Part shown: positions 58,659 through 61,108 of the stretch, piece by piece
Layout of the letters: each line of letters begins with the position of its first letter
How positions within the stretch are numbered: the stretch's first letter is position 1
Assembly: GCF_044324785.1 (NCBI RefSeq)
Contig: NZ_CP172127.1
Strand: one strand, 5' to 3'
DNA length: 64,000 nt
Source of the DNA: Escherichia coli
GTDB lineage: Bacteria; Pseudomonadota; Gammaproteobacteria; Enterobacterales; Enterobacteriaceae
Notes under the pieces: model-generated
What the model saw: the letters and a program-made list of their open reading frames with translations, nothing else
Database searches by the model: none
Told to the model about the DNA's origin: nothing
Translations under genes and position numbers: made by a program

Positions 58659-58800
58659 TTGTTACGGGAAGGTATCAGAGTGGCTAGATGCACTGTGGCA
58701 CGTCTCATGGCGGTTATGGGGCTTGCCGGCGTTCTCCGGGGGGTAAAGCTCCGTGCTACTGTCACCTGGAACGCCGTTGCCGCAGGCGACCGCGTAAACC
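58659..58800 (+). pseudogene. IS3-family (IS629-like) transposase OrfB internal fragment
   Basis: Encodes ...REGIRVARCTVARLMAVMGLAGVLRG...AVAAGDRVNR, recalled as a conserved OrfB stretch of IS629/IS1203-type elements; no ends or start. Confidence 0.45.
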
Positions 58801-58858
58801 GTCTGTACCGCCCGGGCCCAATATTAAGAACTAACGTCATACCAGGGACGTTGTCTGA

Positions 58859-59872
58859 ATGGATGAGAAGCTAAAACATGCGGATTTATCGTCTTTGCCA
58901 GAGCAGGTGAGGGTTGCCGCTAGGGAGCTTGTTGACCTGAAGTTTCGTATCGATATGGCAGCAAGAGGCGGTACGTCAGGGATACCACTTGACCTGCATG
59001 GGAGGATGACAGGAGGAGAATGGGGGCCGCATTGCGGGCTGGAATTTTTCTGCAGCATCATTCCTTTTTTCCCGCGAGATTTTGAAACCTGTTCAGTAAC
59101 TGAAATGTTGGTTCCTACCTTACATACCTTCGGCTGCAACTGGCGTTGGTGGCCCGATCGTTATTGTAGCGACAAAGATGAACACTATATACGGCGTCAC
59201 ATTTTTTCTGATTACGGGCTGAAAAGTACGAGCTATACCTTCATTCCTCAGTTGGGATTGTTCTGCCCGAGTGAAGGTAAAAATCGTGTTAACTTCTGCC
59301 GCCATCACGGTATCGAATATATCCCCGCACAGGTTTATTCCCATGATTACCCAGAAGCAAATCGAATCTCTGTGTACGTTCAGGATACTGCCGGAGGGCT
59401 GGATGTGTGGGCCGTTCTTGATAATCGCTATGTTCAGAAGGTTACTCACTATGCCTTTGCGCTCCCACTTTTGTGCGCTTATGGGGTAGAGTTCCCAGGT
59501 AAGTGGCCAGCAGGATGGCCATCGATATCGGACCTCCTGGCTAATCAACTGTGTTGCACTGATGACACAACCTTTCATAAACCCGTGATCGATATGCAAG
59601 CTGTCAGGGATACGCTGGATCGTGATGAGAACAGCAGAGAGGATGGGGAGATGTATGTCAAAACCAATGTGGTTGAGCTGCCGCTGGCCGGGCTGGTTCG
59701 CTTCATTCTGATCGCAATGTTACTGAGTTTAGGTGCGTTGTTCATCCACGAGGTACTGGATGAGGGAAGCCTGTCCAGGATTGCACTGGGAATAAGCACT
59801 TTCACGGCTGGCGTGGTTGCTTCGTTTTTTATCCCAGCGTTCCGTATCAAGAAAAAATATCTTCGCAAATAG
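58859..59872 (+). CDS. Hypothetical protein with Cys/Trp-rich soluble domain and two C-terminal TM helices
   Basis: 337-aa ORF; no recognisable motif; weak SD. Confidence 0.5.
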   Translation: MDEKLKHADLSSLPEQVRVAARELVDLKFRIDMAARGGTSGIPLDLHGRMTGGEWGPHCGLEFFCSIIPFFPRDFETCSVTEMLVPTLHTFGCNWRWWPDRYCSDKDEHYIRRHIFSDYGLKSTSYTFIPQLGLFCPSEGKNRVNFCRHHGIEYIPAQVYSHDYPEANRISVYVQDTAGGLDVWAVLDNRYVQKVTHYAFALPLLCAYGVEFPGKWPAGWPSISDLLANQLCCTDDTTFHKPVIDMQAVRDTLDRDENSREDGEMYVKTNVVELPLAGLVRFILIAMLLSLGALFIHEVLDEGSLSRIALGISTFTAGVVASFFIPAFRIKKKYLRK

Positions 59873-59968
59873 TTGTGGCATTTCTTGAACACTTTTTCGA
59901 GACAGGTTCAACCGCAGGCATTCAGGCCAAACATGCGGTTAAACTACGTATTCAATTAACTGCCCTAA

Positions 59969-60142
59969 ATATGGCTAAGCGCCCGGACGATATGTCTGTC
60001 TGCACCTAGGTGGAAATTACACCCTCTAAAGGGAGCTGATCTTAGAGGTCATTGGGAAATATCAGTAAACTCTAACTGGCGAATTACCTTTCGATTTGAA
60101 GGCGAAGACGCAATTCTGGTTGACTATCAGGATTATCATTGA
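59969..60142 (+). pseudogene. higB: higB-like toxin gene remnant (C-terminal ~40 codons)
   Basis: ...KLHPLKGADLRGHWEISVNSNWRITFRFEGEDAILVDYQDYH* matches HigB killer-protein C-terminus by recall; no start codon in open frame. Confidence 0.6.
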
Positions 60143-60204
60143 GGGATAACTGAACCGCCCCGGGAATCCTGGAGACTAAACTCCCTGATAAAGAGGTAAA
60201 CAGA

Positions 60205-60546
60205 ATGACTAAAAATACTCGTTTTTCCCCCGAAGTCCGTCAGAGGGCGATTCGTATGGTTCTGGAAAGTCAGGGCGAATATGACTCACAGTGGGCGGCA
60301 ATTTGTTCCATTGCCCCAAAGATTGGCTGTACACCGGAGACTCTGCGTGTCTGGGTACGCCAGCATGAGCGGGATACCGGAGGCGGTGATGGCGGGCTCA
60401 CCACCGCTGAACGTCAGCGTCTGAAAGAGCTGGAACGTGAAAATCGTGAACTGCGCCGCATCGTCTATGGAAACGACATTCGTGCTGGATGCTCTGGAGC
60501 AGGCGTTATGGGCCCGTCGACCGTCCGGCACAGTCCATCACAGTGA
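60205..60546 (+). pseudogene. IS629-like orfA, 3' end lost at internal deletion
   Basis: [59 protein letters not shown]...RELRR then unrelated sequence. Confidence 0.7.
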
Positions 60547-60853
60547 TAAAGGTTCTCAGTATGTATCGCTGGCCTACACACAGCGGCTTAAGGAAGCCGG
60601 ATTACTGGCATCAACAGGAAGTACTGGTGACTCGTATGACAACGCGATGGCGGAGAGCATCAATGGCCTTTACAAAGCGGAGGTAATACACCGTAAGAGC
60701 TGGAAAAACCGGACAGAAGTGGAGCTGGCCACACTCACGTGGGTGGACTGGTATAACAATCGACGATTGCTGGAAAGGCTGGGCCATATCCCACCGGCAG
60801 AAGCAGAAAAAGCTTATTATGCTTCCATCGGAAACGATGATCTGGCAGCCTGA
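60437..60853 (+). pseudogene. IS629-like orfB C-terminal fragment (DDE domain distal part)
   Basis: ...[56 protein letters not shown]...; N-terminal half absent. Confidence 0.7.
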
Positions 60854-60899
60854 GTTCACAGATAAAACACTCTCCAGGAAACCCGGGGCGGTTCAAACT

Positions 60900-61108
60900 A
60901 TGAGTCGTATTCATAATCCCGCCACTCAGGCGCGGTTCTTCGTGAAGATCTGGGAGATATGTCAGTCACAGACGCTGCCACCGCATTGGGCATTACTCGC
61001 ACGGCGCTTTCCCGGATTCTGAACGAAAAAGCGGGTATTTCTGCGGATATGGCGCTCCGTCTGGAATCAGCACTCGGAACCAGCGCCGAAATGTGGACAG
61101 GTATGTAA
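60900..61108 (+). pseudogene. higA: higA-like antitoxin gene, frameshifted and C-terminally shortened
   Basis: Frame A MSRIHNPATQA..., frame B ...HSGAVLREDLGDMSVTDAATALGITRTALSRILNEKAGISADMALRLESALGTSAEMW (XRE-type HTH); junction implies a 1-nt indel. Confidence 0.55.

Follow-up and report, generated by a model that had tools for sequence, protein, structure and literature searches.

A shortened IS629 derivative between the remnants of a higBA toxin-antitoxin pair in an Escherichia coli ICE

Within a 64,000-nucleotide stretch of Escherichia coli DNA (the window), a 745-bp IS629 derivative separates the remnants of higB and higA. An allele with the empty insertion site and a search specific for the internal deletion junction of the IS reverse the story in which an IS hits the pair and decay follows, and they support instead an order in which higBA had died earlier and the IS was defective on arrival. 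The locus is very probably non-functional ICE cargo debris, in which fragments were joined, higBA decayed and a pre-deleted IS629 then arrived. As a locus it matters little, being an ordinary, long-dead toxin-antitoxin pair with no apparent function and no relevance to the workings of the ICE, and its use is that of a worked example. The modest new point is a mobile mini-IS629, for which three or more independent insertions are verified; the derivative is relevant to IS annotation and to the question of how strict the cis action of IS3-family transposases is.

A patchwork of fragments in the cargo region

Judged from its gene content, the host element is an SPI-7/pKLC102-type ICE at tRNA-Phe, with the locus in its variable cargo region. 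The TUM1886 record, 100% identical, has among its annotated genes an SPI-7-type dnaB, TIGR037xx ICE proteins, traD, a pil operon with a shufflon PilV, a TraI-domain protein, an integrase and tRNA-Phe, a set that bears out the ICE setting proposed in an earlier note on this DNA. The region itself was pieced together from fragments by illegitimate recombination (Table 1). A GTTGC tract considered as lying within a mod reading frame was rejected, as neither the IS-bearing nor the IS-free allele of the island has a fusion.

Table 1. Features of the locus, in window coordinates
Feature	Position	Strand	Basis or remark
IS629-like orfB internal fragment, 159 bp	58645..58803	+	IS positions 586-744; no IS ends
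I-type conjugative plasmid segment	58804..59882	+	93.6% identity over 1081 columns to L021 5944-7024
Intact 337-aa ORF (ORF337)	58859..59872	+	within the plasmid-derived segment; no functional assignment from profiles
higB pseudogene	59883..60142	+	alignment to intact plasmid higB in L004 and L005
Target duplication AAC, left copy	60148..60150		single AAC in empty site
IS629 derivative, 745 bp	60151..60895	+	IS positions 1-310 + 874-1310
Inverted repeats	60151-60175 and 60871-60895		25 bp each
Chimeric OrfA' ORF, 113 aa	60205-60546	+
Target duplication AAC, right copy	60896..60898		single AAC in empty site
higA pseudogene	60900..61180	+	alignment to intact plasmid higA; HTH_3 match

The patchwork opens with a separate OrfB-like fragment, which the earlier note had rightly seen but had measured at 140 bp. 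It is 90.6% identical to the full-length IS, gives a weak HTH_21 match and is present in IS-bearing and IS-free alleles alike. A link between this fragment and the local IS is not supported, given 91% against 99.5% identity to IS629 and the presence of the fragment in the IS-free allele. On the same two grounds we rejected the fragment as the piece lost from the IS, even though positions 586-744 fall inside the deleted stretch (311-875).

The plasmid-derived segment that follows begins with the final 31 nt of the relaxase gene nikB and continues through an intergenic stretch and ORF337 to 10 nt past the stop codon of this ORF; in plasmids, ORF337 lies 27 nt downstream of nikB. This ORF, absent from the earlier note, fills most of the interval between the upstream fragment and higB. 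Its homologues form 47 clusters, and searches of Pfam, NCBIfam, PHROGs and PADLOC gave no match. The AlphaFold2 model (pLDDT 81.8) was compared with the PDB by Foldseek, and the best 27 matches were all weak ones to sulfiredoxin/ParB-type structures (best E 0.015), so that the predicted fold is probably a ParB/Srx-type core with a helical hairpin at its C-terminal side.

Remnants of the pair and the insertion between them

Homology to higB begins only at codon 10 of 93, and the bases 5' of that point belong to the separate, plasmid-derived segment, in agreement with the earlier description of a higB remnant without a start. The two pieces meet at a GC microhomology, the first nine codons are missing, and the promoter/operator is gone, the upstream region conserved in the two intact plasmid copies (L004 and L005) being absent here. 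Further downstream, a 4-bp TGTC duplication at 59993-59996 causes a +4 frameshift; the earlier note does not mention it. The changes seen only in the window allele are at 60008 and 60071-60072. The two frame pieces of higB score 20.8 and 31.1 bits on PF05015 (cut-off 27 bits), and a hand-repaired HigB of 84 aa scores 56.2 bits across profile positions 8-91. The stop codon ends at 60142, which confirms the distance of 8 bp that had been read between higB and the IS.

The higA remnant likewise starts 4 bp past the IS, with its ATG at 60900, and carries the expected frameshift, a 1-bp deletion after 60922 (-1). What had been taken for its end at 61108 is a nonsense codon within the gene (CAA>TAA at 61106-61108), and higA extends to 61180. 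Between the two lesions lies a 49-aa HTH ORF (60959-61108), shorter than HigA by 20 residues at the N-terminus and by 24 at the C-terminus. The higA piece of the window matches HTH_3 (E 2.4e-10), and on TIGR02607 the HigA encoded by the intact plasmid pair reaches 98.6 bits (cut-off 47.7 bits). The naming of both genes is thus upheld, by PF05015 for the repaired HigB and by TIGR02607 for HigA of the 92.8%-identical plasmid pair; the alignments to IS629 and higBA references that the earlier note had proposed return the families as named, with the genes broken and the IS shortened. RefSeq already annotates both gene remnants as pseudogenes.

Among the 5,426 complete E. coli genomes searched, the decayed higBA allele occurs on only eight chromosomes, six of them in an IS-bearing form that belongs to a mainly poultry-associated lineage and two in an IS-free form of the same island. 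The IS-free allele of strain 2015C-3121 reads cattgagggataactatgagtcg, with one AAC, the empty site consisting of TGA, 9 nt and ATG. The presence of this single-AAC site in two genomes indicates insertion into a 9-bp higB-higA spacer, so the empty-site allele proves both the AAC duplication and the location of the insertion. Every lesion listed above, that is, the 5' truncation and the +4 frameshift of higB and the -1 frameshift and nonsense codon of higA, is present in the IS-free allele, indicating that the pair died before the insertion. As judged from these alleles, the IS landed in an already dead toxin-antitoxin pair, and the earlier view of the IS as the cause of its inactivation fails. 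Substitutions are still accruing between the IS-bearing and IS-free alleles.

No intact version of the window allele was found among the 5,426 genomes, and the intact relatives are plasmid copies of 86-93% identity. The earlier note had looked to related ICEs for an intact locus, and the answer went the other way: both IS-free alleles are decayed too, as is the pair in all eight carriers. A pattern search of species-representative genomes for the unduplicated higB site found nothing, and a HigA-based locus search returned only relatives of at most 80% amino-acid identity (in Xenorhabdus, Photorhabdus, Providencia and others), which leaves no closer ancestor.

The 745-bp derivative and its copies at other sites

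Aligned to a full-length reference of 1310 bp (L003:304-1613), the element matches IS positions 1-310 at 308/310 and positions 874-1310 at 436/437. The internal loss, earlier put at about 565 bp, is exactly 565 bp (IS positions 311-875), with a 2-bp CA overlap at the junction (60459-60460). The terminal inverted repeats, as had been noted, are intact (23/25 complementary, TG...CA), and the full-length copy has identical ones. The retained parts are 99.5% identical to the full-length E. coli copy and 96-96.6% identical to annotated Stx-phage IS629, with 25/745 differences in the arms from the IS629 of phage BP-4795 and 30/745 from that of Stx2_499; the full-length relative is itself 97.4-97.8% identical to these two. 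In ISfinder practice, an isoform usually shares at least 95% nucleotide identity with the named IS. By identity, inverted repeats and target duplication the element belongs to IS629, and it is without the frameshifted DDE transposase. With the deletion went the last part of orfA, the frameshift site and its ALIL pseudoknot and, in orfB, the first catalytic Asp. The ALIL frameshift element, which scores 120 bits in the full-length L003, is missing from both the window and L010, the rve match is partial (profile positions 39-101 only) and the "WVADFTY" region with the first catalytic Asp is deleted. Taken together, these losses mark the 745-bp IS as a defective copy that cannot make a transposase. 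PGAP annotates it as a frameshifted integrase-core gene.

Target duplications of IS629 have been reported as 3-4 bp (Rump et al. 2011, PMC3271280), and O55:H7 strain CB9615 carries an IS629 with an 86-bp internal deletion (PMC3271280). We considered the CB9615 copy as the same element and rejected it, since its deletion differs.

Copies with the same deletion were sought with the 52-mer at 60434-60485, which spans the junction and for which a megablast word of 28 nt excludes matches to full-length copies. The identical junction is present in 113 records (102 plasmids and 11 chromosomes) from 107 genomes and at no fewer than five distinct sites, most copies being inherited at one ColV-plasmid locus. 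At three sites the copy has its own perfect 3-bp duplication: CTC upstream of mliC, TAC in malS and AAC in the higBA spacer. Reconstructed empty sites were found at 100% identity in 142 genomes for the site upstream of mliC and in 5422 genomes for malS. The other 745-bp copies, on ColV-type plasmids and a ColE1-like plasmid, have imperfect duplications (TAC/TAT and TAC/AAC, respectively). The same junction at at least five sites, three of them with their own duplications and empty sites, implies that the deletion is older than the insertion in the window, against the claim of IS decay within the ICE. The comparison points to a non-autonomous IS629 derivative that appears to move as a unit.

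The same genomes hold many full-length IS629-type copies. Two sequence types, 7 positions apart, can be told among the 745-bp copies, and the window type differs at two positions from the full-length copy L111, to which it is closer than to the ColV type; a single origin of the deletion therefore needs later divergence or gene conversion. Nucleotide 54A was considered as a marker of deleted copies only and rejected, as it occurs in 408 records that include full-length copies. The OrfA' ORF is kept in all 745-bp copies examined.

Transposases of the IS3 family, that of IS911 for example, act preferentially in cis, so that mobilisation in trans is expected to be inefficient. A literature search for a described non-autonomous IS629 derivative gave nothing relevant. 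It is a tentative reading, to which we give slightly less than an even chance, that this mini-IS629 is an undescribed, currently active non-autonomous element which, in spite of the cis preference, is mobilised in trans, that it circulates in extraintestinal and poultry-associated E. coli, carried by ColV plasmids, a plasmid of ColE1 type, chromosomes and this ICE, and that it may encode an OrfA-derived HTH modulator of IS629.

Order of events and relation to known elements

In the history that we favor, an old IS629-like piece, a plasmid segment with the 3' end of nikB and ORF337, and a higBA cassette would have been joined by illegitimate recombination, the cut falling inside codon 9-10 of higB at the GC microhomology and removing the promoter/operator and the start codon. 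The pair, left with neither promoter nor toxin, would then have been free to decay, and the 4-bp duplication in higB and the 1-bp deletion and nonsense codon in higA all arose before the two surviving allele lineages split. Finally, in the mainly poultry-associated lineage, the already shortened 745-bp IS would have inserted at the spacer AAC and duplicated it, its transposase presumably supplied in trans by full-length IS629 copies. We infer the order of events within the first two of these steps, as well as the mobilisation in trans.

The intact inverted repeats and the AAC duplication attest genuine transposition at this site, and they would also suit a history in which a full-length IS629 split a functional higBA and then lost 565 bp in place, the genes decaying later; nor does any of the 5,426 genomes contradict that history directly by showing the moment of insertion. 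It is, however, largely refuted, and we hold it very improbable, since the identical junction stands at five or more loci elsewhere, with duplications of their own and empty sites that were verified, all lesions of higB and higA are already in the IS-free allele, and no genome has a full-length copy at the higBA spacer. Somewhat less improbable, though still unlikely, is that the 565-bp deletion recurred or was spread by gene conversion and that the 745-bp form itself never transposes. The two types 7 SNPs apart, with the window type two positions from L111, would fit such an origin, as would a cluster at 639-643 in the right arm of the ColV type, which matches O157-type IS629 and suggests recombination among copies. 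Yet the breakpoints share only 2 bp (CA), a poor basis for a repeated identical deletion, and conversion would require a prior full-length insertion at each site: none was found at the higBA site, and none turned up at malS or upstream of mliC in searches that were not designed to detect one.

Least probable of all, with hardly any chance in our estimate, is a residual function, either of the 49-aa HTH ORF as an orphan antitoxin or repressor acting against a plasmid HigB (anti-addiction) or of the 113-aa OrfA' in the regulation of IS629. The former has an intact HTH_3 domain, strain GF60 has the island together with an intact plasmid higBA (88% identical), and the OrfA' frame is retained throughout the copies examined. 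Against this stand the loss of the natural promoter/operator, a consensus search that found no promoter-like site on the + strand, the residues missing from both ends of the 49-aa ORF and the substitutions that continue to build up between alleles.

Among known systems, the host element resembles the ICEEc2/pKLC102/SPI-7 ICE family in the annotated gene set around the locus, a likeness at family level that serves as context only. The window pair is 92.8% identical at the DNA level to plasmid higBA (e.g., pCFSAN004181P) and shares with it the toxin and antitoxin families, the toxin-first order, the 9-bp spacer and lengths of 93 + 93 codons. Unlike the plasmid pair, it is without the promoter/operator, nine higB codons and intact frames (one frameshift in higB, one frameshift and one nonsense codon in higA) and is not a functional module. 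The IS shares with IS629 (IS3 family; isoforms IS1203 and IS3411) the 25-bp TG...CA inverted repeats and the 3-bp duplication, but it is devoid of positions 311-875, of the OrfAB frameshift site and of the transposase. In having both ends intact, no transposase and several sites with their own duplications, in genomes that also hold full-length copies, the 745-bp form is like MITEs and other non-autonomous IS derivatives. It differs from typical MITEs in its length of 745 bp, its OrfA-derived 113-aa ORF, its 3' part of orfB and its low copy number, with roughly five sites. It behaves as a non-autonomous derivative, with own duplications at several loci, and falls outside the size and non-coding limits of a strict MITE.

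The higBA pair and the element in its spacer

Aligned to a full-length, 1310-bp IS629-type copy in an E. coli record (L003), the 745-bp insertion element matches positions 1-310 and 874-1310 with 3 mismatches over the two parts together, lacks exactly 565 bp across a junction with a 2-bp CA overlap, and retains intact 25-bp inverted repeats with AAC at both flanks, which confirms the IS629-like identity, termini, duplication and deletion size given in the earlier note. The L003 copy is 97.4-97.8% identical to the annotated IS629 of Stx phages. It carries an ALIL frameshift pseudoknot (120 bits) that is absent from the 745-bp form, in which the "WVADFTY" first-Asp region falls inside the deleted interval and the rve domain is reduced to its C-terminal part; together, these losses indicate that the 745-bp form cannot encode a transposase. 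The element lies 8 bp after the higB stop codon and 4 bp before the higA ATG. In two Shiga-toxin-producing strains, 2015C-3121 and STEC2018-553, the same island lacks the IS, and the empty site reads cat TGA gggatAACt ATG with one AAC. The 745-bp element therefore entered the 9-bp higB-higA spacer by transposition, duplicating AAC, as had been proposed. The L003 copy is likewise AAC-flanked on both sides (301-1616), which may be coincidental (1 in 64) or point to a mild preference for this target.

We read the lesions of the pair from an alignment to its nearest intact relatives, on E. coli plasmids pCFSAN004181P (92.8% identity) and p1_000533 (88%), where HigB and HigA have 93 codons each and score 73 bits against PF05015 and 98.6 bits against TIGR02607, respectively. 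Homology to higB begins only at codon 10, and a ~70-nt upstream region that is conserved between both plasmids, presumably the promoter/operator, is missing. PGAP starts higB at 59857, yet bases 59873-59882 derive from the adjacent plasmid-derived segment, so that the earlier reading of higB as lacking a start is correct; the frameshift reported in higA corresponds to a 1-bp deletion. All of these lesions, together with a duplication in higB and a nonsense codon in higA, are also present in the IS-free allele, to which the window allele adds a few substitutions (e.g., TGG>TAG at 60008 and GG>TC at 60071-60072). Thus higBA was already dead when the IS arrived, contrary to the stepwise inactivation involving the IS that the earlier note had proposed. 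In RefSeq, these genes are already annotated as pseudogenes.

Features of the locus and its surroundings (window coordinates unless stated otherwise)
Feature	Position	Strand	Remark
ccdA/ccdB and ParE-like toxin gene	about 43027-43598 and about 3419-3667		annotated intact
Type III res	about 53439-56353	-	
Type III mod	56331-58367	-	
GTTGC tract	58425-58577		perfect, 30.6 copies
Minus-strand features at GTTGC tract	58581-58318 and 58643-58615	-	
Old IS629-like orfB fragment	58645-58803		159 bp; 90.6% identical to IS positions 586-744
Plasmid-like stretch	58804-59882		
337-aa ORF	58859-59872	+	intact
Start of higB homology	59883		codon 10
TGTC duplication in higB	59993-59996		4 bp
IS629 derivative	60151-60895		745 bp; aligned to L003:304-1613
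1-bp deletion in higA	after 60922		
49-aa ORF	60959-61108		
Nonsense codon in higA	61106-61108		CAA>TAA
True higA end	61180		
Autotransporter remnant	61310-61624	-	C-terminal beta-barrel
TraF-like gene	61790-62992	-	intact
745-bp elements in ColV-type plasmid records L012, L013, L029 and L030	about 1218-1962 or 918-1662		

Transposition and origin of the 745-bp form

A 52-nt probe with the deletion junction at its centre, to which full-length copies match over at most 27 nt (under the 28-nt megablast word), matched 113 records from 107 genomes (102 plasmids and 11 chromosomes). The element is flanked by AAC/AAC in the spacer (empty site verified in 2 genomes), by CTC/CTC upstream of an mliC-type (lysozyme-inhibitor) gene of APEC IMT5155 and DE17 (empty site in 142 genomes, 100% identity), and by TAC/TAC inside malS of strain 1517k (empty site verified in 5422 genomes); the flanks are TAC/TAT on ColV-type plasmids, where the element sits between remnants of nikB and ISEc43, and TAC/AAC on the ColE1-like plasmid pEC332_05. 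The sites with their own duplications and empty sites show that the 745-bp form has inserted in one piece on three or more occasions. The IS decay within the integrative conjugative element (ICE) envisaged by the earlier note thus finds no support, and the element arrived already deleted. Since it cannot make transposase, we infer that its movement relies on full-length copies of IS629, present in abundance in genomes with the 745-bp form. The ColV locus is invariant among the plasmids examined, and the derivative occupies it in about 100 large plasmids of the ColV type.

The 745-bp copies fall into two sequence types, 7 positions apart. The window type, shared by the ICE and pEC332_05, is 2 positions from a full-length copy of chicken strain PK8275. 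The ColV type is set apart by three private changes in the left arm and by a right-arm patch (639-643) matching O157-type IS629. Nucleotide 54A is found in all deleted copies, but also in full-length ones. The breakpoints are identical, with just 2 bp of microhomology, which favours a single origin of the deletion and later divergence or gene conversion. Recurrence of the deletion, or its spread by conversion, is quite improbable. Strain TUM1886 carries a ColV-plasmid copy and an ICE copy together, differing at 7 positions.

A mosaic region within an ICE

The RefSeq annotation of a matching record indicates that the window belongs to an SPI-7/pKLC102-type ICE, with an SPI-7-type dnaB, many TIGR037xx "integrating conjugative element" proteins, traD, a type IVb pil operon with shufflon PilV, a TraI-domain protein, an integrase, and an end at tRNA-Phe adjoining yqgA-speC. 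The 2.7-kb region is matched at 100% in the chromosomes of six E. coli strains, mostly chicken or chicken-meat isolates (among them TUM1886, APEC E19035, GF60, CM2 and Br_112_kylling). The higBA/IS locus sits in a variable cargo part, flanked on one side by a type III restriction-modification system and on the other by an autotransporter remnant and traF. The remnant, just downstream of higA, ends in ...NASFRYSF and is followed by the TraF-like gene; traF is cut short by IS1A in 2015C-3121. Despite the dead higBA, the ICE is not without addiction modules, since ccdA/ccdB and a ParE-like gene are annotated intact. In the 100%-matching TUM1886 record, res is annotated as frameshifted and mod is intact, so that the island may carry an orphan methyltransferase; both genes are intact in 2015C-3121. 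The GTTGC tract, with a promoter-like site on one side and the mod start on the other, has 19.6 copies in the IS-free relative and is a candidate for phase-variable control of the methyltransferase. A small upstream ORF runs through it without fusing to mod in either allele.

The separate upstream OrfB-like fragment had been spotted correctly, its length being 159 rather than 140 bp. It abuts the left edge of a plasmid-like stretch, 93.6% identical to I-type conjugative plasmids, which contains the 3'-terminal 31 nt of the nikB relaxase gene followed by a short spacer, a 337-aa ORF and ~10 nt after its stop; the right edge joins higB at a GC microhomology (plasmid ...CATTGC/CAGG, higB ...AAGGGC/TTGAAC). 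The region is thus a mosaic of unrelated fragments joined by illegitimate recombination. The 337-aa ORF, not mentioned previously, lies 27 nt after nikB on I-type plasmids; its conserved family comprises 47 clusters (38-99% identity; Enterobacterales and Aeromonas) with the conserved motif EGKNRVNFCRHHxIExIPA and gave no match in Pfam, NCBIfam, PHROGs or PADLOC. With an AlphaFold2 model (pLDDT 81.8), Foldseek returned weak but consistent matches to sulfiredoxin, ParB, Noc and KorB, pointing to a predicted ParB/Srx fold that precedes a C-terminal helical hairpin.

Residual function and relation to known elements

We saw no evidence for residual function of the higBA/IS remnants: the natural promoter region is lost, the reading frames are broken, and a consensus scan found no promoter-like site on the plus strand. 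The 49-aa ORF keeps a complete HTH domain and might be imagined as an anti-addiction agent against a co-resident plasmid higBA, for example in strain GF60, which we consider unlikely.

All components of the locus are ordinary. HigBA modules are widespread, ICE cargo regions typically contain decayed toxin-antitoxin pairs and IS scars, and non-autonomous derivatives of insertion sequences are well known as a class. Our locus search found HigBA relatives across Proteobacteria. IS629 ranks among the most active E. coli insertion sequences (PMC3271280). The literature searched gave no description of the 745-bp derivative; the internally deleted IS629 of O55:H7 CB9615 is a different element, lacking 86 bp, whereas the window element lacks 565 bp.
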